Assembly: GCA_963794945.1 (NCBI GenBank)
Contig: CAWCFT010000001.1
Span: forward strand, 128,001-192,000
Source of the DNA: Endomicrobiales bacterium
Lineage (GTDB): Bacteria > Elusimicrobiota > Endomicrobiia > Endomicrobiales > CAWCFT01
Direction of reading: 5' to 3'
DNA: 64,000 bases
Notes under the pieces: model-generated
What the model was told of the DNA's origin: nothing
What the model saw: the letters and a program-made list of their open reading frames with translations, nothing else
Databases searched by the model: none
Translations under genes and position numbers: made by a program
Shown here: positions 14,536 through 34,009 of the stretch, in pieces
Position numbering within the stretch: the stretch's first letter is position 1
Layout of the letters: the number at the start of each line of letters is the position of its first letter

Positions 14536-14564
14536 TTTACTCTCCTTTGATAAAATAACGGTGT

Positions 14565-17046: not shown

Positions 17047-17103
17047 TTTAACTCAGTGCCCGGGCTCTCTAAATTCACTTACTTATAACATACCAATGGG
17101 ACG

Positions 17104-17249
17104 CAAAAAAACCACAGCTATCCTATGACAGCGGTGGTTTGAAGATCAATTCCCGATATACTATCAGATTCGATTTGGCCCATTTTCCATATCCCCTAAG
17201 ATTTGGCAGGCTATAAACGGATTCTAGCTCTTTGAAGTTTTTATGTCAA
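17104..17249 (-). ncRNA. Candidate small-RNA unit D (promoter + ~110 nt + terminator)
   Basis: TTGACA-17-TAGAAT, spacer AACTTCAAAGAG; ACCAC...GTGGT hairpin plus T-run. Confidence 0.55.
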
Positions 17250-17261
17250 GTTATTCAGCTT

Positions 17262-17777
17262 TTAGAACTTTTTTGAAAGAGTAAATCCCAGCGGGCACAT
17301 TTGCGTTCCGAGGGACAGTTTTAATCTGCCGGAATCCCTGTTGTACAGATCTACCGCCCTGATCTGGGCATCCTGGGCCGCTATTCCCGCGGCGCGGCTA
17401 TTGATGGCGCCTATTATGCCTATGGCCAAAAACCCCAGCCCTTCCGCCTGCCTTGTCGCGATACCGTTGCTGTCAGTTATGTCCCTGCTGCTTAAATACC
17501 TGTTATATCCCGTGATCAAAAACACCGCGCTGAAGATTCCGTCGAACACGGCCGAAACCCGCCTTTCGCCGCACAGATGTAACTGTTCAACAGCCGCGGG
17601 AGACTTCTCTATGCAGAGCTTACTGAAATCATCCAGCGTAAGCAGCTTTCCATCCACATTCACAAGATTTTGCCGAAAGCCGTCCCTCGAAACAAAATAA
17701 GCCGGATACCCCTCGGCGAACGCTACGTCCTTAAAACACAATAATACCAGACAAAATACAACCATCTTAATTTTCAT
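17262..17777 (-). CDS. Hypothetical exported/membrane protein
   Basis: Signal peptide, two hydrophobic segments, C-terminal F. Confidence 0.7.
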   Translation of the reverse strand: MKIKMVVFCLVLLCFKDVAFAEGYPAYFVSRDGFRQNLVNVDGKLLTLDDFSKLCIEKSPAAVEQLHLCGERRVSAVFDGIFSAVFLITGYNRYLSSRDITDSNGIATRQAEGLGFLAIGIIGAINSRAAGIAAQDAQIRAVDLYNRDSGRLKLSLGTQMCPLGFTLSKKF

Positions 17778-17791
17778 TCTTGTCTCCGATT

Positions 17792-17821
17792 AACCGTTAC
17801 AACCGCGTAGGTTGCAACGGT
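17792..17821. repeat. REP palindrome flanking RAYT
   Basis: AACCGTTACAACC-GCGTA-GGTTGCAACGGT. Confidence 0.85.
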
Positions 17822-18477
17822 CATTCCAACAACAAATCTTTTATTTTATGTAATTCCTGCTGATAAGATATTCTGTCTTCCACAAAGTTTTTATATTCAC
17901 CTGAGCTGATCGTGATAAGGTCGCGATGACTGGTTAAATTATTTCTATCGTAAATTCCGCTTAGGTATTCCTTGTAAGATGAGGCCTTCCATGATTCGGG
18001 TTTATCGGTTAATTCGGATGTAACAGGATTTAGATGGACGTATCTTGTTAAATGGAGTAAATATTCGTTTGTGTTGACCAGCACGCTTTTGAACCTGCTC
18101 TCCCATAGAGGCCCTTTTCTTTCGTGCTTTGTATTAAAATATCTAGTATAGCTGTTTAAAACGTTGTTCATGAAAACTGATATTCCTTTTCCAGTGTTCT
18201 GCTTCAACACAAAATGCACATGAGTCGGCATAATACAGTACGCGATTATTTGCACCAGATCATTTTTCGTATCATGGAATCCCATGAAATCAAGTTTATT
18301 TTCTCTTAAAAGCTTGTCGTATCTTGAAAAACTGATATCCGGTTTTTCCTTTTGATAGAACTTTACAGCTTCAAGCATCCTGAAATAATCCGTCTCCGTA
18401 TTAAATATAATGTACCGGGCTATACTTCTCGAAAACACGTGGTATACTTGTCCCTCAACTAACAAATCCTTTCTCAT
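17821..18477 (-). CDS. REP-associated tyrosine transposase (RAYT, Y1/HUH)
   Basis: YHVFSR, AYCIMPTHVH, GPLWESRF, RYVHLNPV, SSY. Confidence 0.92.
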   Translation of the reverse strand: MRKDLLVEGQVYHVFSRSIARYIIFNTETDYFRMLEAVKFYQKEKPDISFSRYDKLLRENKLDFMGFHDTKNDLVQIIAYCIMPTHVHFVLKQNTGKGISVFMNNVLNSYTRYFNTKHERKGPLWESRFKSVLVNTNEYLLHLTRYVHLNPVTSELTDKPESWKASSYKEYLSGIYDRNNLTSHRDLITISSGEYKNFVEDRISYQQELHKIKDLLLE

Positions 18478-18490
18478 CCTGATCCCTTTT

Positions 18491-18521
18491 AACCGTTACA
18501 ACCTACGCGGTTGTAACGGTT
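18491..18521. repeat. REP palindrome flanking RAYT (inverted copy)
   Basis: AACCGTTACAACC-TACGC-GGTTGTAACGGTT. Confidence 0.85.
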
Positions 18522-18855
18522 ACTTCTCAAGTTTAAGAATGTTGTAAAGGCCGTCACGCAGTTGTTCTTTGTCTACGGCGGTGCCGAACCTTATGCCGGC
18601 AACGTAGTAGCCGTTCCTGGAGGACACGTGCATTACCTTTCCCAGGGCGTGCTCAAACACGTGGTCGGTTCCCAGCGTGAAGCTCAAGTGGATCAATTCA
18701 TTGTCCCTTACCGGAAAGCGCGTTTCTATCTGCAGGCCGCCCAGGCTTACGTCGTAAATAACTCCCCATCCCTCGAAATTTTCCCTCTCGTAGAAGCGCA
18801 TAAGCACTGGGATGGAAGCGCTGAACCGGATATTGCTGCGGTATTCTTTTGTCAT
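18520..18855 (-). CDS. PilZ domain protein
   Basis: RSNIR (RxxxR), DVSLGG (DxSxxG). Confidence 0.9.
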   Translation of the reverse strand: MTKEYRSNIRFSASIPVLMRFYERENFEGWGVIYDVSLGGLQIETRFPVRDNELIHLSFTLGTDHVFEHALGKVMHVSSRNGYYVAGIRFGTAVDKEQLRDGLYNILKLEK

Positions 18856-19244
18856 TTATCGAGCTCACCGGAAATTTTCGGGAACAACGCGTCTTTGCCC
18901 GTGAATTCATCGTCGGACTTAAGCAGAAGGAACAGGCCGCCGCGCAGGCGCTCGCGTTCTATATCGCCTTCCGCGAAGGTTATGCCTACCACGAAATACC
19001 CGCCCCGAGATGACACGTGCACCACTTTACCCCGCACGTCCTCGAACTCGAACCCCTCGCCCAGCTTGAAGCTGAGCAAAACTTCGTCGTTTACCGAGAT
19101 GCGGCTTATTGTCTCAACCTTAAAGCCGCCCAGGCTCAGGTCGAACATCACGCCCCATATCTCAAAATCAATCGTGCCCTTGAACTTGAGCAGGACCGGT
19201 ATGGAACAGCTGATACGGGTATTCTTTCTGTGTTCTTTAGTCAT
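18852..19244 (-). CDS. PilZ domain protein
   Basis: RKNTR, DLSLGG; paralog of neighbour. Confidence 0.9.
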   Translation of the reverse strand: MTKEHRKNTRISCSIPVLLKFKGTIDFEIWGVMFDLSLGGFKVETISRISVNDEVLLSFKLGEGFEFEDVRGKVVHVSSRGGYFVVGITFAEGDIERERLRGGLFLLLKSDDEFTGKDALFPKISGELDK

Positions 19245-20366
19245 TTGTTTTCCTCAGGTTCCCGATAGACGTCAGCACGACAAAAGACGGCTCGTCGTCG
19301 TAGAGCAGGAACATTTTACCGTCCGCGGCGGCTATAGCCGAAAGGGCTCCCAAGCGCGGCGCCGGTATAACGTAGCGCTGCATCAGCGCGAGGCCGCCGA
19401 ACCCGTTCATTTTGAAGGCGTATAGGGTATTGTTCTTTAGATCGGCTATATACATTGTTTCGCCGTCCCAGCACGGGCCGACCGGGTTTGTTACGTCGCT
19501 TTTGAACTTGTTTACAAGCGACACCGAGCGGTCAACTGAGTACTGGCAAACCTCTCCCGTCACGGACAGCACAGCCACAAAGTGTTGTCGGCGAAGCTCA
19601 TGCCCGGAAGGGTGTACTTTGGCAGTGGTATTTTTTTGAGGACGTCGAGGTTCTTGTTTTGCGCGTGCTGGCGGAGGATAAAGTCGTTGCCGGCGGTCCA
19701 GATGAAGTTGTCGCGGCTGGCGAGCGCCATAGGGCCGAAATCGGCGAAGTATGAAGAATTAACAAGGTTTATCTTATCCTTGAAAATAATGTACTGGTAA
19801 ACCGTCTGCGTGTACCAGCTGGCCACCCACACGTTCTTGCCCGATACCGCCATTGACGTCGCGTGCGCGTACGGCAGGCCGATGCGCACGCTGGCAGGGC
19901 GGCCAAACACCGATACCCCTCCCCACACGAGAACCGCAAGAATAGCCGCGGCCGCGAGGGCGACCCAATGCTTCGGCAATTTTTTTAGCCTGGTAAAGGC
20001 ATCCTCTTCAGGCGCCCCGTAGTACGACAGCATGGCGTGGTCTACAACCTTTTTAACTTCGGAATTGGAGAAGGAAGAGCAGATGCAGTCCGAAGCGCCC
20101 GCGCGCATGAACTCCACGGCCAGGCGGGCGTTGTGTTCCTCCAGGAAACAGAGTATGGGTTTTTTCGGGAACGTTGATTTGATCTTGCTGAACACATCGT
20201 CTTTTAAGGACGAATCAACTATGACCATATCGATCGGCTGGCGCAGGTAAGCGTTCAGGGAAGTGATGTTTTCAGCGACTATAACGTCGTGCTTTTCATG
20301 CCGCAGTATGTCCGAGAGGCGCTTAGCGTCTTCCGTTTTAGTCAATACCAGCAGAATGGTGCTCAT
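19237..20366 (-). CDS. Receiver-like domain + TM + beta-propeller-like protein, frameshift near 19570
   Basis: IDMVIVD...AGASD receiver pattern, one TM, repeated G..VW/FIW/TLW strands continuing in overlapping ORF. Confidence 0.65.
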
Positions 20367-20410
20367 GTGGTTCCCCTTCTTTTGAGATCGTTGAAAAACC
20401 CCAACGATCT

Positions 20411-20532
20411 CTGATTACACAGATTAATTAACACAAGATTACGCAGATTAAGGCAAGATACACAAATTAAGGCTCGTGATGTAGGTGTAATCAATGTAAT
20501 CGGTGTAATCTCAGTTAAAATCTGTGTAATCA
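20411..20532. repeat. Inverted cluster of GATTACAC(AGATT)/(AATCT)GTGTAATC short repeats
   Basis: Left arm GATTACACAGATT, GATTACGCAGATT; right arm GGTGTAATC, AATGTAATC, ATCTGTGTAATC. Confidence 0.75.
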
Positions 20533-20534
20533 AA

Positions 20535-21641
20535 CTACGGTTCGGGAATAACAAAATCTTCGCCGGCTTTCGGAATGCCGCGGTCGGTTTTACCGGCGTT
20601 AGCGTTGTATATTACCTGCCACTTGTTGGAATTATTGTAAAATTTTTCCGCTATATCGCGGAGCGTGTCGCCTTCCTTTGCCGTATAATGCTGGGGCCAG
20701 GTGACCGGCGGCTGGGGCCTGGGTTTGGCTTGTCTCTTCGCGGCGGCTTCAATAGCGAGGCCGTCTTCCTTGTCGGGGCCCGGTTTTGGGGGCGGCGCTA
20801 CGGCTTTCACAAGGCTGCGGTCCATGTACCTATCCGAAAATCTTTCACCGTTGAACCGGTAGTGCACCGCGAACCGGAAAGAAGCATATTCCTTTGAGCC
20901 CGTCGGCCAGGAGAAGGCCGTGTCGAAACCTATCGGCCACAGGTAGGAGCTCAAGCCCGCGTTGAGGCTCGGCTCCGCGGAACTCGAGGAACCCGCGTAC
21001 CCCATGCGGAAAACCATCAGGCCGTCAAAGAACTGTTTCTCCCATCCGGCCGACAAGTACATCATCGATGACGAATATGAAAGGTCGGCGTTAAACTGCT
21101 TCTTATAGACTAACCCGGCGGAAGCGGCAGTATTGGCCTGAGGGCTGTTTCCCGAGAACATGTTGCGAGCGGCAAAGCCGAGGCTTAAATTTTCCCGGAT
21201 ATCCGCCTGCACGCCCGCGTCCGAAAGGAACTGCGTCGAGCCGTTGGTATCGCTAGACAATAGTTTTACCGTAGCGCCGTAGCGGAACGGCCGTTTCTTG
21301 AAAATAGTTTTCCTGGCGAAGGAAAAACCGGTCTGCTGGATCTTCGCGCCGTCAATTTCCCTGTCGGAAAATTGTATGCCCCAGCCGGGCCGGACATAAA
21401 CCGCGCTCCCTTCGAACCCCGGGTCGCCGAGGCTGTAAAAGCTGTTGACGCCGGCCTCCGCTTCCTCGTATTTTATATCCGCGAGGCCCGCCGGGTTCTG
21501 GTAAACGTCGTCGATGTCACCGCTTACTGCCGTAAACGCCCGCCCCACACCCTGCGCCCGTGTGCCGGTGAAATCATCGCTGGCTGACGCGGCCGCGCAA
21601 AAGCAAGCGCAAAAGGCAATAAATAGAATTATTTGTTTCAT
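20535..21641 (-). CDS. PorV/FadL-like outer-membrane barrel with C-terminal LysM
   Basis: GTRAQGVGRAFTA...YQNPAGL; KEGDTLRDIAEKFY...WQVIYNAN; start MKQIILF. Confidence 0.75.
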   Translation of the reverse strand: MKQIILFIAFCACFCAAASASDDFTGTRAQGVGRAFTAVSGDIDDVYQNPAGLADIKYEEAEAGVNSFYSLGDPGFEGSAVYVRPGWGIQFSDREIDGAKIQQTGFSFARKTIFKKRPFRYGATVKLLSSDTNGSTQFLSDAGVQADIRENLSLGFAARNMFSGNSPQANTAASAGLVYKKQFNADLSYSSSMMYLSAGWEKQFFDGLMVFRMGYAGSSSSAEPSLNAGLSSYLWPIGFDTAFSWPTGSKEYASFRFAVHYRFNGERFSDRYMDRSLVKAVAPPPKPGPDKEDGLAIEAAAKRQAKPRPQPPVTWPQHYTAKEGDTLRDIAEKFYNNSNKWQVIYNANAGKTDRGIPKAGEDFVIPEP

Positions 21642-21663
21642 AGAAGTTGAGTTAAACCGTGTC

Positions 21664-21891
21664 GTCTTTGCGAATCCCGCAAGGCGGGATGAAGCAATCT
21701 CGCTTTCCGACTTTACAGCAAGATTGCCGCCCGCCACTAAGTCTTCGGCGGGCAGGCGTCGCGGAGTTTATCCGCCTGGCGGGACTCCCCGCAATGACAC
21801 CTATTCATATAAACGCTGTCATTTCGATCCCGCCGAGGCGGGAGAGAAATCTTAAGATTCCTCGTCCCGCCTTGCGGGACTCGGAATGACA
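21664..21891. repeat. Tandem pair of REP-like elements (two families)
   Basis: Same families as 501-565 and 690-806. Confidence 0.75.
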
Positions 21892-21930
21892 ATTTAATTA
21901 CTGCCTTAACACGGCACTGCCGGCCAGCTT

Positions 21931-22479
21931 TTATTGTTTTGATTCAAAAACTATGTTCAGTTCACCGAAAACCACGTTCGCTTCAATAACGAGCGCGTTT
22001 GCCTTGTTATTGAAACTTTCCGTGCGATAAGTATATTTTCCGAACGCTATTTCATTATTGTCGGGCATATGCGCACCAGCGAACACGGAATTCACATTTA
22101 TGATCACCGGCATTTTGGGGTCGATTTTAATTGTAGTTGAACCAAACACAGTGTCAACTTTCTTGCTGACACTCCCGTTCGCGAGCGATATACCGGTAAA
22201 ATCAATGATCCTCTTTCCGAAAACCACGTTGTTCTCATTCTCAGGGTTAATGGTTGCCGTGCTGCGCGGTTCACATACGTGATGCCTGCCGCAGAAAGAA
22301 CGGCCTATAAGTATCCTGCAGCCGAAATAAATCATCATCAGTGCGAAAAATATCCTGAATATTGGAATGTGTATGCCTAATAAAATATTCAGTATAACCG
22401 ACAGCCCCAACAAAATTAACAATACACCCCAGAACAGCCCGCTCATAAAAAAACATCCCATACGCATTCCCTCCTCCAT
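21931..22479 (-). CDS. LiaF-like membrane protein
   Basis: N-terminal TMs; repeated VVFG/TVFG/SVFA strands. Confidence 0.6.
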   Translation of the reverse strand: MEEGMRMGCFFMSGLFWGVLLILLGLSVILNILLGIHIPIFRIFFALMMIYFGCRILIGRSFCGRHHVCEPRSTATINPENENNVVFGKRIIDFTGISLANGSVSKKVDTVFGSTTIKIDPKMPVIINVNSVFAGAHMPDNNEIAFGKYTYRTESFNNKANALVIEANVVFGELNIVFESKQ

Positions 22480-22489
22480 TCAAGAGAGC

Positions 22490-22984
22490 TTATTTCGCGC
22501 TATTACCCGCCCGGCGGTTACGGAACCAGGGGAATATCTCGTTGACTTCACTCTTGTAGCTGAGGTATTCCCCGCCGAATTTTTGTTCAAGATAATCGTC
22601 CTCTTCCCTTATCAGCAGTTTAAAAAGCGCGTACATGAAAATTGGTATGAGCAGCCACAAAACGCGCCCCGAGATAACAACCAGCCCGGGTATGATAAAG
22701 AATATCCAAGCGGCGTAGAGTGGATTGCGTGAAAATGAATACATGCCGTCGGTAGCCAGTTTCCCTTCTCTGAACGCCTTGGACACCCGCTTCCCCGACA
22801 GCACCAGCATGACTATACCGGCAGCTGTGAGCAACGCTCCGGTGGCCGTCATTAAAGTACCGTTAAGCACCAGTGAATGTGCCCGCTGAAAAAAGCGCTC
22901 GCTTACCGCGCCAAACGCGGCGGCAAAAAGTATGGTCCTTAACACTAATTTTATTCCTATTCCAGCTAGAGTCATATTTTTCAC
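22490..22984 (-). CDS. Isoprenylcysteine carboxylmethyltransferase/PEMT family membrane protein
   Basis: LATDGMYSFSRNPLY, EEDDYLEQKFGGEY. Confidence 0.9.
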   Translation of the reverse strand: MKNMTLAGIGIKLVLRTILFAAAFGAVSERFFQRAHSLVLNGTLMTATGALLTAAGIVMLVLSGKRVSKAFREGKLATDGMYSFSRNPLYAAWIFFIIPGLVVISGRVLWLLIPIFMYALFKLLIREEDDYLEQKFGGEYLSYKSEVNEIFPWFRNRRAGNSAK

Positions 22985-23008
22985 TCGTTGGCCCGCTCAG
23001 CCGCGGCC

Positions 23009-23212
23009 TCAAATACCGATATTGTTGTTTATTGACCTTACCGCCTGCTCGTGTTCGGTTGTATTTTTTCGTGTGTTTTTGGCTATCTCTTCAAGAAGAA
23101 GCAGGGCTTTGTTTATCTTCCAGTACCAGCATATAACTTCCCGGCAAACCAAAAAGAAAATTATCAAAAACAACAAAACGACTATGGCCGGCCCGAATAT
23201 TGAAGTGATCAT
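23009..23212 (-). CDS. Small single-pass membrane protein
   Basis: GGAGG RBS; REVICWYWKIN after TM. Confidence 0.7.
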   Translation of the reverse strand: MITSIFGPAIVVLLFLIIFFLVCREVICWYWKINKALLLLEEIAKNTRKNTTEHEQAVRSINNNIGI

Positions 23213-23315
23213 TAATGCCTCCGTTTAGAGCGCCAGCTACGCATTTTGAGGCCGCAATTTTGCGACCTCAAACTTAAAAACTCGGTTTCTATCAATTATC
23301 TCGCACCCCGCAAAT

Positions 23316-23474
23316 AAAAAACCACGCTGCGTGTGCAGAGTGGTACTGTTAGTGCTAATGCGCGTTCAAAATGATCGGAATACAACAGGATCTTTCCACG
23401 TCCCCAATTCTCCCGCCATCCGTTTTTAAATTAACAACTATTTTAAATATATCTCCCTGGAACTTAAACGTTAA
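23316..23474 (-). ncRNA. Candidate small-RNA unit B
   Basis: TTAACG-17-TATATT, spacer AAGTTCCAGGGAGA; homologous throughout to 30416-30572. Confidence 0.65.
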
Positions 23475-23800
23475 TATCGCGGGCTTTTCCAATATTCTCT
23501 TTGTCATGAGGCTACCGGGGGTATTTGCGGGGTTTTGACCTTCTGTCGTTTGGCCCGTCAGGGTACCTTACGGAATCAAAACTCCCAACCACCGTTCCAT
23601 GTGTCCCTTCAACATGCAAAGAGATGTGTTTCGGCGGAGTAATAGTTTTAAACTTGGACACATCGTCCAACAACGCAAGGTAAGTTACATGCACCAATTT
23701 AAGCATTGCGTACCCTCAGCAAAGAACAACCTTCAAACCAACAGCCATCAATATTAGTTCAATTCCCAGTCCAGTTTTGAAGTTTAGCTTTATGGCTTAA

Positions 23801-23829
23801 AATATAACTCTTTTGAACTGATTAGTCAA
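23801..23829 (-). promoter_or_regulatory. Sigma70 promoter with the family spacer (unit E)
   Basis: TTGACT-17-TATATT, spacer CAGTTCAAAAGAGT. Confidence 0.65.
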
Positions 23830-23856
23830 ATTATTCAACAATTTCAACAACATTTC

Positions 23857-24070
23857 TTATAAGCGGCAACTTATAAGCGGTAAGTGGTAAGTGATAGGTG
23901 GTAAGTAAAAACCTTACCTTTGTCTTACTTATTGACTTTTCTTATAACTTGTGTGTACGCCTCTTTAGCTATAAGCGGCAAGCTTTAAGTTGTAAGTGGT
24001 AAGTAAAAACCTATTTAGTGTCTTAGTTTTAAGACTTTTCTAATAACTTACAACTTGTGGCTTATAACTT
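23857..24070. repeat. Heptamer repeats (TAAGYGG and inverse CTTAYAA) in two ~100-bp blocks
   Basis: TAAGCGG TAAGTGG TAAGTGA TAGGTGG TAAGT; block repeated at ~23970. Confidence 0.75.
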
Positions 24071-24170
24071 GTTCATCATTCGCCGATTATTTCCCCCTGC
24101 GCATGCTCCTTCACAAAGGCTTTGGAGAATGAGCCTGCTTCGGTGGATTTCGCAGTAATGAGGGCTCAAT

Positions 24171-24590
24171 TTATTCACCGATTAATTTAATCAACACACG
24201 TTTCGGCCTTTTGCCGTCGAATTCACCGTAGAATATTTGTTCCCAGGGGCCGAAGTCCAGGCTGCCGCCCGTTACCGCCACCACCACCTCGCGGCCCATT
24301 ACCTGGCGTTTGAGGTGCGCGTCGCCGTTGTCTTCACCGCTTCTGTTGTGGCGGTAATGGCTGACCGGTTCGTGCGGGGCAAGCTGTTCCAGCCAATCCT
24401 TGTAATCCTGGTGGAGGCCGGTCTCGTTATCATTGATGAACACGCTCGCCGTTATGTGCATCGCGTTTACAAGGCAGAGTCCCTCTTTAATTTTGCTTTC
24501 TTTGAGGGCTACCTCCACATCATTTGTAATATTGACAAAACCCACCCTGTTGGGAATATTAAATGTCAGTTCTTTTTTGTAAGATCTCAT
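24171..24590 (-). CDS. yjbQ: YjbQ/UPF0047 family protein
   Basis: [33 protein letters not shown]. Confidence 0.93.
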
Positions 24591-24642
24591 TGGCTTCTCC
24601 TGGCCGGCGTTTTTCTCATCGGGTTTTAACAAACTTTATTTT

Positions 24643-25110
24643 CTAGATCTCTTTTTCTACAACGCGAAGCATGCTTTCGTCGGCTTTGGCGTCGGCAAGC
24701 GGGAAAAGATATTTATCTTCGTATTCCGCGTGTTTTATCAGAGTGTATATAGTCTCGTTGACCAGCGACATGAATTGTTCTCTCAGCTTGTTATCGCCTT
24801 TGGATATCTCGCCCGCCATCGCCTTTATCTTTTCGAAGCTCGCGGTAAGGACTTTATGCTCTTCCAATATGCTGTCGAGGCAGGCGCGCTCGTCTTTTGT
24901 AAGGGCCCTGCTTTTCAACAACTCATTTATGACAGTCTCTTCATAAGCGAAATGGAGCGGTATGTGTTTATAGAAGAAATCCAGCGTGTCGGCTGTATCT
25001 TCGCAAAAATTGGCCCTGTCATACTTGAGTATAAAATCCTGCATGAACACCGTTTTTTCCACCCCTTCGGTGTGGGTGTCGTAAATAAGGTCCAGTATCT
25101 TATTATTCAT
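24643..25110 (-). CDS. Hemerythrin-like (HHE) protein, paralog 1
   Basis: HFAYEE, EEH, HAEYED..LFP. Confidence 0.8.
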   Translation of the reverse strand: MNNKILDLIYDTHTEGVEKTVFMQDFILKYDRANFCEDTADTLDFFYKHIPLHFAYEETVINELLKSRALTKDERACLDSILEEHKVLTASFEKIKAMAGEISKGDNKLREQFMSLVNETIYTLIKHAEYEDKYLFPLADAKADESMLRVVEKEI

Positions 25111-25144
25111 GTTTCCTCCAAGACAGCCTGGCCCGATCATTAAT

Positions 25145-25588: not shown

Positions 25589-25598
25589 GGTATTTAGC

Positions 25599-25736
25599 TC
25601 ATTTTGCCGTCTTGACAACGGCCTCCTCTTCAGGATGCCCGCGCGTCGCTCTTTTAATTTCCGAAAACAGGCTTAAGAGATACATGGTCGCCGCGGCGGA
25701 GATCAAAAATATTAATATCGTTGTCCGCTTTTTCAT
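25599..25736 (-). CDS. 45-aa membrane peptide (missed by ORF track)
   Basis: MKKRTTILIFLISAAATMYLLSLF...; fills intergenic gap closely. Confidence 0.5.
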   Translation of the reverse strand: MKKRTTILIFLISAAATMYLLSLFSEIKRATRGHPEEEAVVKTAK

Positions 25737-25741
25737 AACGC

Positions 25742-26558
25742 TTATTCCCCGTGAACTACCACGTCCTGTATCCTTAAGCCGTACTTTGCCTCAAGCTCCC
25801 GTGCCTGCTTCCTGATCTTGTCATGCCAGCTACGCTGGTTGGCCCGGGCCCATTCGAACTCGGCAAGTCTGTCCGGAAAATGCGTTCTGTAAACCGGCAG
25901 CATCTTGTCTATAGCAGAACCCCGCATGTTGAAGAGCTCCACCCAGAACAAAACCGGCGCCGGCCTCTTTTAGCGAGGAGAAAACATCGTCTAAATTACC
26001 CAGGCCCGGCAGGACGGGCGAAATGAAGCCGAAGGTCCTTATCCCTTTTTCACGGGCTTGTTTTAACGTCCCGAGGCGCTCGTCGGGAGAAGACGCGCGG
26101 GGCTCGAGTATCCGGGCGGTTTCCGCGTCTAGCTGGCTGATGCTCATCCCGAGCTCGATATCCAGCTCTTTCAGGAGGTCAAAATCCCTTTCGACGAGCG
26201 ACGACTTGGTAAGTATATCTATAGCGAACTTATCCCGGAACCCGGAAGCCGCAAAAACTTCCAATATCTTTCTCGTCAGGCGGAACTTGGCTTCCTCCGG
26301 CATGTAACAATCGCAAACGCTGGAGATGAATATTGACCCGGGCTTATGCTTTTCTATCTCGCCGCGCAAAAGCTCGGGGCAATTCGCCTTGGCGAAAACG
26401 AATTCGCCCCACTTGTCGGGTATATTCTGGAACTTCTTGATAAAGTCAGCGTAGCAGTACTTGCACGCGTGCGAGCACCCGGTGTACGGATTAATAACGT
26501 AATCCGAAAGCTTCGACCTGGTCATGCAGGTTTTTGACTGTATTTCCCTTATATTCAT
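25742..26558 (-). CDS. Radical SAM protein (SplB/Rv2578c-like), frameshift near 25946
   Basis: NPYTGCSHACKYCYA, ILTKS. Confidence 0.88.
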
Positions 26559-26576
26559 TGTATAAAAGTTTGAACA

Positions 26577-27059
26577 CTAATACACAATCCTGGATATGGC
26601 TTTTTTTACGGCGCCCAATACTTTATCGTCGGCTTTCGCGTCGGCCAGCGGGTACAGATATTTGTCCTCGAAATCTGCGTGCGCTATCAAAGCGTGGATC
26701 GCCTCGTTGACCAGTGCCATGAATTCTTCCCTCTGGCCTTTTCCGGCCTTGGCGGATTTTTCCGCCGTTTCTTTGATGTTCTCAAAATCCGCTAACAGCA
26801 TTTTATGCTCACTAAGTATCTTGTTCAGGCACAAGGCTTCATCTTTGGTAAGGGCCTTGCTTTTCAACAACTCATTTATCACCGTCTCTTCGTAAGCGAA
26901 ATGTAGCGGTATATGTTTGTAGAAGAAATCCAGCATGCTGAATATATCTTCGTTGAAACCGCCCTTTTCCTTCTTTAGGATAAAATCCTTTAAGAATACC
27001 GTCTTTTCCTTACCTTCGGTATGCTTGTGATAAATAATGTCCAGCACTTTTTCTTTCAC
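26577..27059 (-). CDS. Hemerythrin-like protein, paralog 2
   Basis: HFAYEE, SEH, HADFED..LYP. Confidence 0.8.
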   Translation of the reverse strand: MKEKVLDIIYHKHTEGKEKTVFLKDFILKKEKGGFNEDIFSMLDFFYKHIPLHFAYEETVINELLKSKALTKDEALCLNKILSEHKMLLADFENIKETAEKSAKAGKGQREEFMALVNEAIHALIAHADFEDKYLYPLADAKADDKVLGAVKKAISRIVY

Positions 27060-27108
27060 AGGCGCCTCCGTTGCGCGCGCAACCGCCGCGGCTTGTATCG
27101 CAATGTTT

Positions 27109-28188
27109 TTACTTGACTGTTTCTACCGACCAGTTTTCCTTATAACTCTGGCCCGAGTCGCTGCCTCCGTTCACGGTTATCCAGTAAAGCCAGCCCTGGC
27201 TTCCCCAGAATTCCGACTGGCCCCAATAGATCGTGTCAACCACGATATCCGTGTCCGTATGGAAAGTGATAAAATCGCCGTAGTCACGGCCGAAGAATTT
27301 ATCCCCGTTCTTAAACCCGCTGGTGAGGTCGACGGGGACCCAGCCGATACCTTTTGCCCAGAACTCCGCTTTTACATGGGTCTGCGGGCCTGACACGGCC
27401 CACCTGCCAACCAGCGCCCGCGCCGGGATCCCGTTGGCTCGCAGTACGGCGGTAAAAAGCAGGGCAAACCCGCCGCAATCTCCCGTTAAAGTCCTGCAAA
27501 TTATCGAAGGCTGGCTGTGCGAGTGCACAAAGCTTTCGGTGGAATATGTCCCTTTTTCGGTGATGTACCTGTAAACATTGTAAGCGAAAACAATATCCTT
27601 ATCCGAACCGTTCTTTACCATCCCGGGAGTTTCTTTGAGCCATGACTTAAACTCATCGCTGTCCCAATCAACTGTTTTAGACGCCCGAAGATAGAGGTTC
27701 CTTGAAGCCTCGTCCAGTTCTTCCACTGGCTGGTCATATTTGCCGGGGACAAGTTCCCTCGCGTAGAGGTCGAGCTGGTATTCAACCGCGAAATCGATAT
27801 TGTGGCAGGTCTGGGGGTCGGTCTTCACGCGTTCCAGGAACATCTCCCTTTTTGCGGGGCTCAACTCGTTGACTATAGACGCGCCGTCCGCGCTACCGCC
27901 GAGGAACGCCTGATAGTTAACAAGTGACTGTGTTTCGTGCGAGGGCGGTTTGGGCGTCAGCAATATCCATTCAGTTACGTTCATTGACGGCTTGCTTATG
28001 TTTACCGACAATCTTGCCTTTACCCTTTTGACTTTACGGGTCTTGATGATGTAATCCAGCGAGGGGTCGAATTTCCAGGGCGCTGGTTCTGAAGCGCGAG
28101 CACGTTTATTTACAATGTAATGGTTTAGAATAGATACCGCGCAGACGGCAGTTAATATAAATACTAAAACCGTTATCAGTTTCTTCAT
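27109..28188 (-). CDS. Transglutaminase-like protein
   Basis: GDCGGFA..F...LRANGIPAR, HVKAEF, GWVPVD. Confidence 0.9.
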   Translation of the reverse strand: MKKLITVLVFILTAVCAVSILNHYIVNKRARASEPAPWKFDPSLDYIIKTRKVKRVKARLSVNISKPSMNVTEWILLTPKPPSHETQSLVNYQAFLGGSADGASIVNELSPAKREMFLERVKTDPQTCHNIDFAVEYQLDLYARELVPGKYDQPVEELDEASRNLYLRASKTVDWDSDEFKSWLKETPGMVKNGSDKDIVFAYNVYRYITEKGTYSTESFVHSHSQPSIICRTLTGDCGGFALLFTAVLRANGIPARALVGRWAVSGPQTHVKAEFWAKGIGWVPVDLTSGFKNGDKFFGRDYGDFITFHTDTDIVVDTIYWGQSEFWGSQGWLYWITVNGGSDSGQSYKENWSVETVK

Positions 28189-28206
28189 GGGTTAAGTAAC
28201 TCTTTC

Positions 28207-29025
28207 TTATTTCCAGCTTACATCCATCTTGTTGCGTTTTGGTATCTGGTGGTATTTGTATTTTGGGAAGCCGACCATCATTGCTCCGGTGCAGGCGTCC
28301 TCTTCCGGTATGCCGAGCTCTTTTTTTACTTCCGGCGAATAGGTGGCTGCTATCCTTACGAAACCCGCCCAGCAGGTGCCGAGGCCAAAGGCCGGAGCGG
28401 CGAGGTCGAACGTGGCGAGTGTGATAGCCGAATCGCCCGCTGCCATCTGGTTATCTTTATTTGCGTGGGTTATTACAATATGCGGAGCGTTGCGGCAGAG
28501 AGCGTCGCAACCGTTGTCGTAATCTTTTATCAGCCACGAAAAATCCAGGGCGGCTGCTATGGGAAGGTTTTTTTCAACAGCGGAGCGCATCCAATCGATA
28601 ATCGTCTTTGTAAGCGCTTTTACTTTAGCCGTGTCATGCACCACTATCCAGCGCACAGGCTGGGCGTTCATGGCCGTAGGCGCGTAGCGGGCGGCGTCCA
28701 GCACTTCTTCTAAAGTTTTTTTGGGGACCGGTTTTTGAAGGTAGGCCCGCACTGAGCGCCTGAAGCGGATATAGCTGCCTATCTGCTCGGCAGGTACGGC
28801 GTGTATCTTGCCGGATGACATGGCCTTCTCGAGCAGCGGCGACGTTACGTTTGCCGCGCCATTGGGGCAGACGGCTTCGCAGTGCCCGCAGAACAGGCAG
28901 TTTACGGCGTCGTCCGGCAAAACCACAGGATAACCGCCCTTATCGATAGTTATGATCTCCGCCGGGCAAAGCTCCGTGCATGCCCCGCACCGGCTGCATT
29001 TTGTGTTGTCGAATACCGTCGTCAT
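28207..29025 (-). CDS. Nitroreductase with N-terminal 2x[4Fe-4S]
   Basis: Two CxxCxxCxxxCP, RRSVR, APTAMNAQP. Confidence 0.93.
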   Translation of the reverse strand: MTTVFDNTKCSRCGACTELCPAEIITIDKGGYPVVLPDDAVNCLFCGHCEAVCPNGAANVTSPLLEKAMSSGKIHAVPAEQIGSYIRFRRSVRAYLQKPVPKKTLEEVLDAARYAPTAMNAQPVRWIVVHDTAKVKALTKTIIDWMRSAVEKNLPIAAALDFSWLIKDYDNGCDALCRNAPHIVITHANKDNQMAAGDSAITLATFDLAAPAFGLGTCWAGFVRIAATYSPEVKKELGIPEEDACTGAMMVGFPKYKYHQIPKRNKMDVSWK

Positions 29026-29048
29026 GTTCTCTCCATATTTAAAAGCAT

Positions 29049-29879
29049 TTATTTAACCTTTATAAAACCCTGCTGGTCGACAATTTTCTGGCCGTTATCT
29101 CCGAGCACGAAGCCGAGGAAATCTTTGACAATACCCGACGGAGCGCCGTTTAGATACAAAAGCAGCGGGCGAGCGTACGGGTACTTGCCGGACAACACGA
29201 CCTCTTTGGAAGGGGCAATACCGTCTATCTTCATTGTTTTTACGGCTTCCGTTATGTTGCCTATGCCCACGTAGCCTATCGCTCCGGGTGTTTTAGAGAC
29301 CATGTCCGCAACCGACTGGTTGGAATCCTTTATAACAGCGCTCTGAACCACATTGTTCTTAAACAAAGCCAGCTCGCTGAACGACTCGTGCGTGCCTGAC
29401 TTCTCGTCACGCGACACAACCGATATTTTTTCGTTCGCCCCGCCAACCTGCGACCAGTTGGAAGTTTTGCCTGTGAATATCTCGAAAACCTGGATTTTAT
29501 TAAGCGATTCTACCGGGTTTTTCGCGTTCACTATCACCACTATCCCGTCCATGGCAATGACGTGCGCCTTGATGTCGATCTTCTTAGACAGGGCATCGCT
29601 CAGTTCGGCCTCTTTTAGTGGCCTGGAAGACGCGCCGATGTCGCACGTGCACGCTATCAGCGAATTTATACCGGCGCCGGAACCGCCGCCGATCACCTTG
29701 ATGTCCGCGCCGGGGTTCCCTTTTTTAAATTCCGCCGCGCAGGACTGCATTATAGGCAGTATTGTAGTTGAACCTTCGACGACCAGCGAATTTTGTTTGC
29801 CCGCGACCCCTGAAACGATACCGCTTAAAACCAGCACTACAAACAGAACCGACACGAACACGGCAGCAGCTTTTTTCAT
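29049..29879 (-). CDS. pstS: Phosphate ABC transporter substrate-binding protein
   Basis: GSTT, GGGSG.GI, SSR, R..SGT, GAIGY. Confidence 0.9.
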   Translation of the reverse strand: MKKAAAVFVSVLFVVLVLSGIVSGVAGKQNSLVVEGSTTILPIMQSCAAEFKKGNPGADIKVIGGGSGAGINSLIACTCDIGASSRPLKEAELSDALSKKIDIKAHVIAMDGIVVIVNAKNPVESLNKIQVFEIFTGKTSNWSQVGGANEKISVVSRDEKSGTHESFSELALFKNNVVQSAVIKDSNQSVADMVSKTPGAIGYVGIGNITEAVKTMKIDGIAPSKEVVLSGKYPYARPLLLYLNGAPSGIVKDFLGFVLGDNGQKIVDQQGFIKVK

Positions 29880-29913
29880 ACCCGGCCTCCCTTATTTATG
29901 ATGCAACTGTTAC

Positions 29914-30354
29914 TTAATGTTCAGGTGAATTTGAGAAAATTGACAGCGCTATCCCGGCCGTCAGCGCCAGCGCGCCGTATAGCGAACCCTTCCACGGAGC
30001 GCCGGCTTTAGTGCTTTTGTACAGCATATAATTATTGATTGCCAGCCCCGAGCAGTATATCAGCGCTATCGAAGGGACCGCGTACCTGTAAAACACGTTT
30101 TGAACATAATAATTTACTACGGTGCAAACGATGAGCAGAATCGAGACCACAAGGAAGCCCAGCCCGCCAAGCCTGAGCAGTGAGAGTATTACAGGCTTGA
30201 GCGAAGGGTCTATCTCGTTCCAGTGTTTGCCCGCCGCCTGCTCGTGAAAAGGAAGGTACTTGTCGGCGAGCAGGCTTTTAACCGCCATCACCATGCTTAC
30301 TGTTCCGGTTAAAATATACAGCGCGGCAGGAATAATTTTTAGAATTTCACGCAT
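29914..30354 (-). CDS. Hypothetical membrane protein
   Basis: Four hydrophobic segments. Confidence 0.7.
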   Translation of the reverse strand: MREILKIIPAALYILTGTVSMVMAVKSLLADKYLPFHEQAAGKHWNEIDPSLKPVILSLLRLGGLGFLVVSILLIVCTVVNYYVQNVFYRYAVPSIALIYCSGLAINNYMLYKSTKAGAPWKGSLYGALALTAGIALSIFSNSPEH

Positions 30355-30415
30355 TTTTTTTCCTGGGACTGGCTCCCCCCGACCCACCTGCGGGCCATTT
30401 TACCTCTCAGAAATC

Positions 30416-30572
30416 AAAAACCACGCTGCTAAACAGTGTGGTTTCGTACGGCGTTTATGTTCGTATTAAAATGGTCGGACTGCAACAGGATGCTTGCACG
30501 CCAAGGTTCTCCCTATACCCGTTTGAAGTGAACAACTAAATCAAATATATCTCTTTGGAACTTGCATGTCAA
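30416..30572 (-). ncRNA. Candidate small-RNA unit A
   Basis: TTGACA-17-TATATT, spacer AAGTTCCAAAGAGA; ACCAC...GTGGTTTTT terminator. Confidence 0.65.
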
Positions 30573-30582
30573 CACTGGAGGT

Positions 30583-31173
30583 TTACAGCACGCGGCAGAC
30601 CAGCTCACCTTTGCCTATGGGGATCACGACAGCGTCCACGCGCGCGTCCGCCAGGACCTTATCTATGAACAGTTTTAGTTCTTCACCGTGGCTTATCACG
30701 TTGTCGGCCACAAGCATGCCCCCCTTCACCATTTTCGGAATGACGATATCATAGATGTCGCTGTAAACCTCTTTCTCGGCATCCAGGAAGCAGAATGATA
30801 TTTTATCGAGGCCGGCAAGGTTTATCTTAGCGTCGCCTTCGGTAAGCTCTACGGCGTCTTCGACGCGGGCGAGCCTGAATGTTTCCCTGGCGAGGCTGGC
30901 CTTTTCGGGCAGTATCTCAAACGTGTGTATCTTCCTTTTTAACTGCCTGCAGGCAAGCGACAGCCACAAGGTTGAATAACCTGCGCTGGTGCCCACTTCG
31001 ACGGCTTTGCCTTCCGGCGAGGAGGCGAGCAGTATCGCAAGGAATTTGCCGGTTTCGGCCGGTACCTGCCTGAGCCGCTTTAGCTTCGGAGTGCCGTCCT
31101 TGCGGTCCCTGGCGTCTATAGCCGAAAGGTACTCCATGCGCTCGCGTATCTCCACAGATATGGACTTGAACAT
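30583..31173 (-). CDS. O-methyltransferase (YrrM-like)
   Basis: [24 protein letters not shown]. Confidence 0.92.
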
Positions 31174-31201
31174 TGGAACCTCTTTTTTGTGCGCTAACAG
31201 G

Positions 31202-31729
31202 TCATTTTCTCAGTATCTTCGGCAGGTGGTGTACGATTATTTTCTCAACAACCTTTCCTCCGGTCGCCGCGTCTTTGCCGGTCAGCTCCAGGTAGTGCAC
31301 TATAGGGAACGGAATCATTTCTGTCTCGTTAATATATATATCGCTAAGATATGCGGGCTTGCCGTTTATATCTGTCACCGCAGAAACGCCGTCCGGACTT
31401 TCAACAACTTTAATGTCCTTCTTCTTAAAACCCTTCACAACAAGCCGATACGCCTTAACGTTATCGTCGTAGCTGCACTTAAAACCGTATCCCAGCTTAT
31501 CGAAAGCGCCCAGCTCTTCCCTTCCGCCATTTTTTGCAAGCAGTACCCAGTAAGCCTCGACCGGCTTTTGGGGGTCGATCTTCCCATCGGGACCGATATT
31601 CACGTCGTAGTGGACCTCATTCGCGTTCTTGCTGCGGCGTATGACGAACAGCGGTTTTGACAGCGCGAAAGCGTCGGCTGCGTTTATAAGCAATACTAAG
31701 GCTAGTATTATATTTTTAACGTTCGCCAT
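31202..31729 (-). CDS. DUF4833-like exported protein
   Basis: [19 protein letters not shown]. Confidence 0.75.
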
Positions 31730-31732
31730 GGG

Positions 31733-32092
31733 TTATCTTTCTTCTATTTTCCTTACTTCAACGCTCGTACCTTTACCTTGAAGAATAGGGCAGTCTCTCG
31801 CTGTCTTTACGGCCTCACCAAAGTTAGCGGCTTTGATAAGTATGTAGCCGACGACGGATTTATTCTTTTTGGTGTAGGGCCCATCCTTGATAACGTTTTT
31901 CGGCTTTAACACTTTCCCTTCCGCCGACAAATGATGACCGCCGGTCGCAAGCCTGTTCTTTGACGCGATGCTCTTGACCCATTTGTCCCACTGCGCCATG
32001 TAAACCTTCATCTGTTCGGCTGAAGGCTGGGCCCCTTTTGTGGTAATGTCCATACGGAACAGCAGTATGTATTCAGCTAATGTTTTCTTCAT
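31733..32092 (-). CDS. YciI/DGPF family protein
   Basis: DGPY, VGYILI.A, CP, VEVR. Confidence 0.88.
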   Translation of the reverse strand: MKKTLAEYILLFRMDITTKGAQPSAEQMKVYMAQWDKWVKSIASKNRLATGGHHLSAEGKVLKPKNVIKDGPYTKKNKSVVGYILIKAANFGEAVKTARDCPILQGKGTSVEVRKIEER

Positions 32093-32174
32093 GGTTTCTT
32101 CCTTTTTATCAGATTTATGCGAGGAGATAAACATTTATATCTATTTGGCAGGGCCGTGTCAAGAAAAATGCTTT

Positions 32175-33131
32175 CTAAGCCTTTATCCCGAATTTTTCTT
32201 CAAGGTACGGCAGGTCGTTTAACACGTAGGTCATAACATAGCCGCGCCACTTGCCCCAGAGCTTTTCAGCGGCGCGGGTGGTTTTATCTATAAGCTCGCG
32301 CGGGTTACTGCCTTTCGGGACGGGCCTGCCGAATATGAGGCGGTGGAATATCTTCACGCTCCAGACGTCAAGCGAAAAGCTCGAGTGCGGGTCGGCGAAG
32401 CTGGCCGAGTATTCCCCAACGCCGAAAAGCTCCATCAGCCTGCGCTTGGACTCTTCGGGTGTCATTTCTGAAAGCTCCTCCGCGCTCGGGAACCCCTTTA
32501 CCAGCTGATTGGCAAGCTTGACGAGGTTCTTTGCCCTGTAGCCGAGCTTGCATTTTTCAAGCTCGCGCCTGGGCGCGGAGGCGATAGACTCTTCCGTGGG
32601 CCAGAGCTGTATCACGGCGTTGTCGAACTTTATCACCTCGCCGTATTTCCGTATCAGGCAGTCCCACATCGACTGCGAGCGCTTTATAGGCGCCATTTGC
32701 AGGAGCACGGCCAGAGTCAAAGACGGGAATATATCGCTGCCCCAGGCTTCCCTCATACCGTAAAGTCTGCGGACTAGGTGTTTGAGCACCCTGTCTTTGC
32801 GCATCATCTTATAGAGCTGGGTTATGTCTTCTTCGGCCCCCAGCGCCTTGACAAGCATGGCACGGATCTTCATGAGGTCCTTCATGCCAAGCTTTTTGGG
32901 TGCGAATACGTCGAAGGCTATCTCGTATTTCCCCGCGCACGCGCGGATGCCGAGAGGGAGCTTTTTGCCGTTTTCCAGCTTATACCAGAACCCGGTCCTC
33001 ACCGTGCCGTCTTTCCACTCTTCGAAAGGCGTGAACCAGTGCCAGCCCGCCGGCTTTTTAACCGTTAGCTCGAAGTTGTACGGCTGTACCGGCGTGATTT
33101 TAAAGCTTGCAGCGCGCCTAAGGTTATGCAT
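32175..33131 (-). CDS. HhH-GPD DNA glycosylase (AlkA-like)
   Basis: LGYRAK, LFGVGEYSA, DVW, WGKWRGY. Confidence 0.85.
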   Translation of the reverse strand: MHNLRRAASFKITPVQPYNFELTVKKPAGWHWFTPFEEWKDGTVRTGFWYKLENGKKLPLGIRACAGKYEIAFDVFAPKKLGMKDLMKIRAMLVKALGAEEDITQLYKMMRKDRVLKHLVRRLYGMREAWGSDIFPSLTLAVLLQMAPIKRSQSMWDCLIRKYGEVIKFDNAVIQLWPTEESIASAPRRELEKCKLGYRAKNLVKLANQLVKGFPSAEELSEMTPEESKRRLMELFGVGEYSASFADPHSSFSLDVWSVKIFHRLIFGRPVPKGSNPRELIDKTTRAAEKLWGKWRGYVMTYVLNDLPYLEEKFGIKA

Positions 33132-33801
33132 GTTGATTCAGGTTAAATTTGGTTGCCTTTATGAGCCTGGCCCCCATATCGAACGCTTTCTGGCAGTCTA
33201 ACGGAAATATATCCCTTCTGCGTTTTGATTTTTCAGCGCCATCGAAAGACATGACATTGTATTTTTCATAGTCGTCGAACTGCAGTGTGTCGGTAACGTA
33301 AAGCGACTGGACTTCCTTGCAGAGCAAGTTGCGCTTTATAGGCGCTTCTATCGCGCCGAGCGTGTCCTTGTAACCCCTGGCCTTAAGGCCCTCTTCGTTT
33401 ATGTTCATCGTGTATATTAGGCCCGCCTGGATAGGCTTCACCCGCGTGGTGGAATAATTGGTGTCGTAAAGCAAGTATTGGAATAAAAGCCGCTCGATGA
33501 ACGACCTCATTGCCCCAGTCACCATTCCGAAATAGATGGGTGAACCGAGTATGAGGGCGTCAGCTTCTTCGATCTTCGTCAATACAGGTTTAAGCCCGTC
33601 CTGCACGACGCAATGGCCGAAACTCCCACCGGACCTGAGCTTGCAGGCAAAACAGCTTATGCAGCCTTTGTAGTCTAGGTCATAGAGGTGGACAAGCTCG
33701 GACTCGGCGCCAGCAGAAGCGGCGCCTTCCAGTGCCTTCTCGAGCAGGGTGGCCGTGTTCCATTTTTTTCTCGGGCTTCCGTTAATGGCTATCGCTTTCA
33801 T
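33124..33801 (-). CDS. Iron-sulfur flavoprotein / flavodoxin-fold protein
   Basis: GSPRKKWNT, CISCFAC, GSPIYFG. Confidence 0.92.
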   Translation of the reverse strand: MKAIAINGSPRKKWNTATLLEKALEGAASAGAESELVHLYDLDYKGCISCFACKLRSGGSFGHCVVQDGLKPVLTKIEEADALILGSPIYFGMVTGAMRSFIERLLFQYLLYDTNYSTTRVKPIQAGLIYTMNINEEGLKARGYKDTLGAIEAPIKRNLLCKEVQSLYVTDTLQFDDYEKYNVMSFDGAEKSKRRRDIFPLDCQKAFDMGARLIKATKFNLNQHA

Positions 33802-33839
33802 TGTTGTCTCCTTATCATTTTACTGCGTGCCGGAAATTG

Positions 33840-33984
33840 AAAAGCCACGCTGCGATCCGCAGAGTGGCCTTGTTAAAAGGTTATTTAGTTATCCATGAGA
33901 TATATAACAAGACCATCAGCGCCTTACCCAAAACCCAGCGCGCGTCTTCAAGTTAAATATATCTCTTTGGAACTTATCTGTCAA
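33840..33984 (-). ncRNA. Candidate small-RNA unit C
   Basis: TTGACA-17-TATATT, spacer AAGTTCCAAAGAGA; GCCAC...GTGGC hairpin plus T-run. Confidence 0.6.
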
Positions 33985-34009
33985 CCATGCCTCTCTATAT
34001 ATGTTATCG

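Follow-up and report, generated by a model that had tools for sequence, protein, structure and literature searches.

Related promoter–terminator cassettes in an Endomicrobiales genome as candidate promoter-proximal attenuators

We analysed a 64,000-nucleotide (nt) stretch of the genome of an Endomicrobiales bacterium (contig CAWCFT010000001.1, positions 128,001 to 192,000; hereafter the window, G000:C1:128001-192000, where G000 denotes this genome). On its minus strand it carries five related promoter units, labelled U1 to U5 and referred to here as family A, four of which end in the same type of terminator hairpin. We propose that these units are cis-acting promoter-proximal attenuators, portable cassettes spread by duplication, and not guide-like small RNAs (sRNAs); we put the chances of this reading at about even. 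It builds on the anatomy of the units, their family relations and their gene context, which are direct observations. An initial annotation of the window had offered two interpretations, a co-regulated family of guide-like or sibling sRNAs with a constant 3' handle, or mobile attenuators; the gene context comes close to the second.

Promoters and terminators of family A

Five minus-strand sigma70-type promoters with 17-nt spacers and a shared sequence had been described in the initial annotation, and a consensus scan recovered them all, the -35 positions given there being the low ends of the same hexamers. Their common sequence is AGTTC(C/A)A(A/G)(A/G)GAG(A/T)TATATT. The promoters at 33984 and 30572 (TTGACA-N17-TATATT) and at 17249 (TTGACA-N17-TAGAAT) score 11/12, followed by those at 23829 (TTGACT-N17-TATATT, 10/12) and 23474 (TTAACG-N17-TATATT, 9/12). 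A partial sixth promoter, also foreseen, is present at 32162 (TTGACA-N17-TATAAA), and a repeat search places all six in one 36-nt family (Table 1).

Throughout the 2.9-Mb genome, the 19-mer AGTTCCAAAGAGATATATT is found with 0–2 mismatches only in U4 and U5 (exact), U3 and U2; the remaining 16 of its 20 fuzzy matches have four mismatches each. Between U4 and U5 the final 14 spacer bases and the -10 box agree completely, while the bodies are at chance similarity: the ends have been conserved or re-used, the middle has not. A profile of U3/U4 run over the genome finds U5 (E 2e-8) and one diverged unit on another contig, C11:50680-50510, whose promoter is related, whose leader measures 108 nt and whose hairpin carries a G.U at position 5. 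In 60 genomes of the same order the 19-mer (up to 2 mismatches) occurs at seven places, every one without a -35 box or hairpin. A degenerate family-A promoter pattern gave one match in genome contigs (an unrelated metagenome-assembled genome, locus L012) and none in metagenome contigs; the collections scanned for these relatives may lack records of this genome and of very near ones. TA-rich hexamers are visible by eye at about +5 to +15 of the units, which is uninformative in AT-rich DNA.

In four of the five units, a CCAC-N-CUG...CAG-N-GUGG hairpin with a T-run follows 83–102 nt past the -10 box, with position 5 unpaired. That these hairpins share a mismatch at the same stem position was likewise borne out: a strict genome-wide search (CCAC-N(1-2)-CTG...YAGC-N-GTGG plus T-run) returns exactly four matches, namely U1, U3, U4 and U5. 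The distance from the -35 start to the hairpin is 112–131 nt, slightly more than the 110–125 nt first estimated. Predicted stabilities range from -8.8 to -13.2 kcal/mol and T-runs from 4 to 7. With the C11 unit included, all five family-A hairpins retain the weak position-5 pair. A generic terminator scan of the region shows no enrichment (24 found, 23.8 expected), and CCAC-footed terminators are frequent in the genome, with 28 loose matches and 13 of 649 hairpin-plus-T sites beginning with CCAC.

The units match no known RNA family in Rfam, in keeping with the initial annotation. At gathering thresholds over the whole window, Rfam reports only a minus-strand TPP riboswitch at 47385-47496 (66 bits, gathering score 54.3). 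An E-value threshold over 16900-34100 adds only a chance-level FMN match outside the units (19 bits where 66.2 are needed, E 1.7), and no genuine match came from sixteen sister loci.

Cassettes lie between co-directional genes

In all 19 cassettes with downstream sequence, a long open reading frame (ORF) on the same strand follows, its start lying at +18 to +359 nt relative to where the hairpin starts. On the other side, in 13 of 20 cassettes, the nearest long same-strand ORF ends 85–190 nt before the hairpin, just ahead of the promoter (full range 85–827 nt). The resulting layout of stop codon, promoter, about 100 nt, terminator and next gene is the anatomy of a promoter-proximal attenuator and fits poorly with free-standing guide-like sRNAs. 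Behind U5 only 43 nt separate the T-run from the start codon of the FMN reductase gene, too little room for a separate promoter; behind U4 the likely start of the next gene is about 60 nt away. The genes 3' of the units are mutually unrelated, as had been noted: KilA-N; a 67-amino-acid (aa) membrane ORF with PEMT/ICMT; an unknown 146-aa protein with a PBP-like protein; and FMN reductase.

Were the units trans-acting sibling sRNAs instead, they would be independent genes, all co-induced by one promoter type, each combining a targeting body that varies with a 3' hairpin handle that stays constant and binds a protein or stabilises the RNA. Discrete promoters and terminators, predicted RNAs of about 105–125 nt, a stem sequence and position-5 mismatch kept next to variable loops, and the lack of an Rfam match all agree with this. 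The consistent abutment of every testable cassette on a co-oriented gene does not, nor does the little or no space that U5 and U4 leave for a promoter of the gene's own. The 3' handle is moreover a variant of the lineage's ordinary terminator form, the bodies share no common seed, and neither Hfq (PF17209), ProQ/FinO (PF04352) nor CsrA (PF02599) has a match in the genome, which is 86% complete. We therefore regard the sRNA interpretation of the initial annotation as unlikely. CsrA-titrating GGA-rich RNAs, considered on account of the G-rich leaders, were dropped because CsrA was not found in this 86%-complete assembly.

Leader bodies and candidate leader ORFs

U3 and U4 are homologous, as claimed before, with 89 of 122 aligned positions identical (73%; alignment z 9.4 against shuffles), and every other pair of bodies is at chance (z -0.2 to 1.6), in line with the divergent middles reported initially.

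The five family-A leaders, those of U1, U3, U4, U5 and the C11 unit, each contain a candidate ORF in which a Shine-Dalgarno (SD)-like G-run is followed after 5–11 nt by a start codon and 11–41 codons; on shuffling, an ORF of this kind with 8 or more codons turns up in 24–58% of trials per leader. The ORFs of U3, U4 and U5 stop 11–13 nt before the hairpin. A stop 8–16 nt before it arises in 1.5–4.3% of shuffles per leader, a range that was set post hoc and in which U3 and U4 count as one event. As to clustered regulatory codons, the family-A leaders hold only the Cys-Cys pair of U3/U4, and the downstream genes are mixed. In U5 an 11-bp antiterminator is predicted, the helix of which continues into the terminator's 5' arm (-20.2 kcal/mol, z -3.55, with none of 300 shuffles as good). 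No dual hexaloop of the ANTAR type was noted in the leaders on inspection by eye.

U2 is followed by an orphan ORF of 64 aa. As a possible regulator it has no homologue among proteins of 35–112 aa and no family assignment, and it may not be a gene.

A wider promoter class shared across the order

The genome has 614 sigma70-like sites, and in 24 of them the spacer ends in AAAGAGA, with 6 or all 7 positions matching. A CCA(C/T)...GTGG-T4 hairpin lies within 190 nt of 11 of these 24 promoters versus 3 of the 590 others (Fisher 8e-15), a figure inflated by paralogous copies that are not independent. The pattern TTGAMA-N10-AAAGAGnTAnAWT occurs nine times in the genome and one to five times each in 8 of 14 same-order relatives from larger-genome families, and in none of 46 genomes of a small-genome family (f10); the reversed pattern, used as control, gives 0–1 matches per genome. 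In relatives, AAAGAG-type promoters drive a tRNA gene (G001) and the orthologue (G011) of a ferredoxin/oxidoreductase operon found at C4:219401 in our genome. CCAC- or CYAC-footed terminators with long T-runs end ordinary genes in relatives too.

Judged by these comparisons, the shared spacer and constant handle are in part the normal promoter and terminator grammar of the order. Since both elements are ordinary in the lineage, sharing them is by itself no proof of co-regulation. Of the co-regulated family with a constant 3' handle that had been suggested, the sequence-related family stands; the spacer and handle, partly lineage-typical and present at tRNA and housekeeping promoters of relatives, are weaker evidence of co-regulation than they seemed. 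The remainder putatively specific to family A consists of the extension AAGTTCC, the TATATT -10 box, the CUG/CAG stem and the weak fifth pair. As (T)TC before AAAGAG is also seen by eye in several unrelated promoters, the specificity of AAGTTCC to family A is provisional.

A second family with probably leaderless mini-ORFs

A further set of cassettes, family B, has the promoter CTTGAAA...TCAAAAAGAGATAGAAT, a leader of 55–130 nt and the terminator CCACATTGCGC...GCGCGGTGTGG-T7. It counts about a dozen copies on nine contigs and is found in at least four families of the order. Behind the copies lie genes for ParB-like proteins, a RhuM-family protein, N6-methylase-type or HsdR-like enzymes, a papain-like protease, an NHL-repeat protein and others.

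In most copies, both in this genome and in three relatives (G004, G005 and G006), an ATG stands exactly 9 nt past the -10 box, so the transcript is probably leaderless. It opens an ORF of 7–14 codons, often M-A-(L/F)-D-x-x-W..., whose stop falls 1–10 nt before a CCACAT...ATGTGG-T terminator in the copies of G005, G006 and G000; the G004 copy shows no terminator within 90 nt. Family B looks like an undescribed leader-ORF attenuator, by its predicted features. Leaderless mini-ORFs that stop before terminators raise the prior for ribosome-coupled control in this lineage, where leaderless mRNAs from this promoter form are suggested to be normal.

The window itself holds one B-type cassette on the minus strand, at 4936-5069: CTTGAAA-N17-TAAAAT, an ATG 6 nt on, and a GGCAG...CTGTC hairpin with T7 near 4975-4938. 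A gene for 290 aa follows it at 4852-3980. At a locus of a small-genome relative (L085, G092:C158:11659-11702), this type of promoter, with an ATG 9 nt past the -10 box, heads a full-length oxidoreductase-like gene.

Proposed mode of action

Termination, read-through and any control by translation in the cassettes are predicted from the sequence. Each cassette would consist of a strong sigma70-type promoter, a leader of about 85–105 nt and an intrinsic terminator, placed between two co-directional genes. RNA polymerase would start at the cassette promoter, most transcripts would stop at the hairpin after about 105–125 nt, and the downstream gene or operon would be expressed only through read-through. 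One hairpin would serve twice, ending the upstream operon and intercepting the cassette's own transcripts, and the cassettes would divide 17 kb of stress and accessory genes into operons that are each gated on their own. Weak or absent pairing at the fifth position of the stem may leave the terminators leaky or tunable. Read-through would most likely be modulated by translation of the short leader ORF: in U5, the first codons of the ORF form one strand of the predicted antiterminator, so that translation would melt this helix and favour termination.

Several observations weigh against this proposal. A promoter in front of a terminator is also how an independent sRNA gene appears. The antiterminator is no better than chance in U1, U3, U4 and the C11 unit (z +1.06, -0.53, -0.27 and +0.56, respectively). 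The leader ORFs are not uniform either: that of U1 ends within the hairpin and that of the C11 unit passes through it, so the mechanism would not be uniform. The coding signal of U3/U4 comes from two sequences, whose consensus fold has only one compensatory pair. In family B, two copies hold the nucleotide motif in another reading frame, which argues for constraint at the level of RNA over that of the peptide.

A further reading, a lineage-specific gating system of Elusimicrobiota-like bacteria, strikes us as quite improbable. Here the cassettes would be switched jointly by a factor reading the hairpin with its weak fifth pair and/or AAGTTCC, and the leader bodies would add an input of their own, such as ribosome occupancy of the mini-ORF. 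If it were true, one signal could open an island of redox and stress genes and, via family B, restriction, ParB-like and other accessory genes.

Alternative explanations

Besides sibling sRNAs, two further accounts have to be set against promoter-proximal attenuation. The first is re-use of promoters and terminators without any special switch: strong promoters duplicated into 3' untranslated regions ahead of ordinary terminators, with constitutive leak, and with similarity due to recent copying and convergence. Prokaryotic genomes commonly contain families of near-identical upstream regions in front of unrelated genes (PMC3575422), the two conserved ends look like consensus forms found across the lineage, and in four of five leaders no significant alternative fold is seen. 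Yet the order of promoter and then terminator is found at 14 or more sites, of which 11 belong to one promoter class, which is unexpected for chance landing; the retention of a weak position-5 pair in all five family-A hairpins and the strong predicted antiterminator of U5 point away from this account as well. We hold it to be improbable.

The second is a regulon under factor-dependent antitermination, in which a dedicated protein would recognise the spacer and/or the CCAC-N-CUG hairpin with its unpaired base and cause joint read-through. Conservation of the spacer and stem far beyond that of the bodies would fit such a protein, and the AAGTTCC extension and CUG/CAG stem are confined to this cluster and one diverged copy. 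A positional candidate is the HTH_17-receiver response regulator, whose gene stops 26 nt before the start of the U5 -35 box; one ANTAR protein is encoded elsewhere in the genome (C1:352113), away from the units. Against this, the genome has no match to the lambda-Q-type families PF03589 and PF06530, though divergent proteins could escape, and a single NusG with no second NusG-type protein found. In five relatives, no cassette adjoins the response-regulator homologues (none was found in the flanks of homologues, 38–47% identical, in G003, G012, G011, G004, G014 and G008). AAAGAG, furthermore, is a promoter element used generally in the order, including at tRNA and ferredoxin-oxidoreductase promoters. 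On balance the protein and homologue searches speak neither for nor against a dedicated antitermination factor, which in our estimate has a small chance of being correct.

Mobile-element anatomies were rejected: an IS110 bridge RNA, an integron attC site or the ends of a miniature inverted-repeat transposable element do not match copies that lie on one strand, number 4–6 and show no terminal inverted repeats by eye, and a REP/RAYT element is discounted as the RAYT-like gene is flanked by a different palindrome and the unit hairpin has only four strict copies.

Genomic setting

The assembly comprises 2.9 Mb in 19 contigs with 46% G+C. Between 16 and 35 kb the window is chromosomal and not phage, and forms a nearly continuous minus-strand gene run. 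It encodes KilA-N, a RAYT-like Y1 transposase, two PilZ proteins, PEMT/ICMT, hemerythrin-domain proteins, a radical-SAM enzyme, a nitroreductase with Fe-S domains, a PBP-like binding protein, an O-methyltransferase, YCII and HhH-GPD proteins, FMN reductase and the HTH_17 and receiver response regulator.

Table 1. Coordinates of the units, their parts and related copies. Positions without a contig name refer to the window.
Feature	Position	Strand	Remarks
U1 promoter	17221..17249	-	TTGACA, 17-nt spacer ending AAAGAGC, TAGAAT; consensus scan, repeat search
U1 candidate leader ORF	17118..17183	-	SD-like GGGG, 9-nt spacer, ATG, 21 codons; ends in hairpin loop; any such ORF in 24% of shuffled leaders
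U1 terminator	17105..17137	-	Hairpin 17137-17112 (CCAC-C-GCUGUC...GAUAGC-U-GUGG, C.U at position 5, -13.2 kcal/mol), T7
U2 promoter, family A	23801..23829	-	No hairpin; then orphan 64-aa ORF (23706-23512)
U3 promoter	23446..23474	-	TTAACG, 17-nt spacer ending AGGGAGA, TATATT; consensus scan
U3 candidate leader ORF	23355..23399	-	GTG start, 14 codons, tandem Cys codons, stop 11 nt before hairpin
U3 terminator	23316..23343	-	Hairpin 23343-23322 (U.C at position 5, -11.1 kcal/mol), T6
U4 promoter	30544..30572	-	-35 sits 11 nt past stop of upstream O-methyltransferase gene
U4 candidate leader ORF	30455..30499	-	Homologue of U3 ORF; 14 codons, stop 13 nt before hairpin
U4 terminator	30416..30441	-	Hairpin 30441-30421 (A.C at position 5, -8.8 kcal/mol), T5
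Weak sixth promoter	32134..32162	-	TTGACA-N17-TATAAA, spacer ending AAATAGA; without hairpin; before YCII-domain gene
U5 promoter	33956..33984	-	Consensus scan
U5 candidate leader ORF	33881..33916	-	SD-like AAGG, 5-nt spacer, ATG, 11 codons and stop, 13 nt before hairpin
U5 predicted antiterminator	33865..33915	-	33915-33905 pairs with 33875-33865 (11 bp), extends into terminator 5' arm
U5 terminator	33840..33867	-	Hairpin 33867-33845 (U.C at position 5), short T4 run
HTH_17 and receiver response regulator	34010..34567	-	Directly upstream of U5; regulator candidate by position only
Family B copies, this genome (G000)	C8:91743-91630; C9:113573-113440; C9:66207-66070; C2:123470-123610; C17:23860-23745; C17:317-175; C11:47750-47560; C11:15390-15290; C3:67450-67570; C4:153531-153415
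Family B copies, relatives	L071 (G004); L076 (G005); L063 (G006)

Other repeats occur near the units. A 32-nt palindrome (ACCGTTrCAACC...GGTTGyAACGGTTAA) lies at 17790-17821 and 18489-18520, on both sides of the RAYT-like Y1 transposase gene (17821-18477), whose product scores 58.6 bits for NCBIfam REP_Tyr_transpos, under the cut-off of 80. A third copy of this REP-like palindrome, unrelated to the cassette hairpins, stands at 34708-34739, upstream of the response regulator. The KilA-N gene is enclosed by a 60-nt direct repeat (95% identical) at 16000-16059 and 16987-17046, possibly an element end or duplicated target, which adjoins an IS110-family transposase (14807-15880). The intergenic region 5' of U2 (23872-24028) contains a 59-nt repeat (76% identical) and several CTTATAAG palindromes that may be protein-binding sites.

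Diverged tandem duplicates are seen for the hemerythrin-domain genes (24651-25109 and 26600-27058, 73% identical) and the PilZ genes (18585-18779 and 18974-19168, 70–74% identical). Further out, minus-strand genes at 11152-14586 resemble a defence island (a SIR2-like protein and a 755-aa protein of DndB plus Swt1-type HEPN composition) in a stretch of 33–42% G+C. CstA is split into two ORFs at 38294-40208 on the minus strand (Pfam positions 1-221 and 325-560), by a frameshift or an assembly indel.

Significance

If the attenuator reading is true, an uncultivated lineage wires many of its accessory and stress genes through re-usable promoter-attenuator cassettes, which would offer a compact route to rewire and gate newly acquired genes. 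It would also yield about 20 candidate conditional terminators from a phylum without transcript maps. Family B, with its probably leaderless mini-ORFs conserved across families before restriction-type and ParB-like genes, may be the more rewarding target.

Comparison with known systems

Leader-peptide attenuators include the trp, his and pyrBI types. Family-A units are like leader attenuators in that genes are directly preceded by a promoter with a short leader that ends in an intrinsic terminator, with a candidate SD and short ORF in every leader. U5 adds predicted, mutually exclusive antiterminator and terminator folds, and the terminator lies between the candidate leader ORF and the structural gene, as in the leader-peptide type. 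They differ in that conservation falls on the promoter and terminator and not on a sensor domain, that four of five leaders have no significant antiterminator, that no run of regulatory codons exists beyond the Cys-Cys of U3/U4, and that the downstream genes form no biosynthetic pathway.

In late-gene antitermination of phage lambda (PR'-tR'), Q binds between the -35 and -10 boxes. The conserved element inside the spacer, the predicted short terminated transcript and the predicted need of the downstream genes for read-through are reminiscent of it; by contrast, our units are several and chromosomal, where the phage has one, and no Q-family protein was detected in the genome.

Sibling sRNAs under one regulator are exemplified by LhrC1-5 under LisR (PMC5880928). 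Several short units with related promoters and terminators in one genome are common to both. Siblings share bodies or seed motifs, however, which family-A units do not, and the latter abut a co-oriented gene.

Putative mobile promoters, as defined by Nijveen, Matus-Garcia & van Passel in 2012 (PMC3575422), share 80% identity or more across 50 nt or more between -150 and -50. Family A is similar in presenting homologous non-coding upstream regions before unrelated genes in one genome, with no known RNA family. Its members are less alike than this definition asks: U3 and U4 are 73% identical over 122 positions, and the others share only a 29–36-nt promoter block and the hairpin. Each hairpin-bearing copy, in addition, brings its own terminator.

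Family-A units fall outside the strict definition of each class named above, and the family itself is absent from Rfam and was not found beyond this genome. Its kind is nonetheless already known, comprising re-used upstream regions before unrelated genes (PMC3575422) and 5' conditional terminators and attenuators (PMC5314783).

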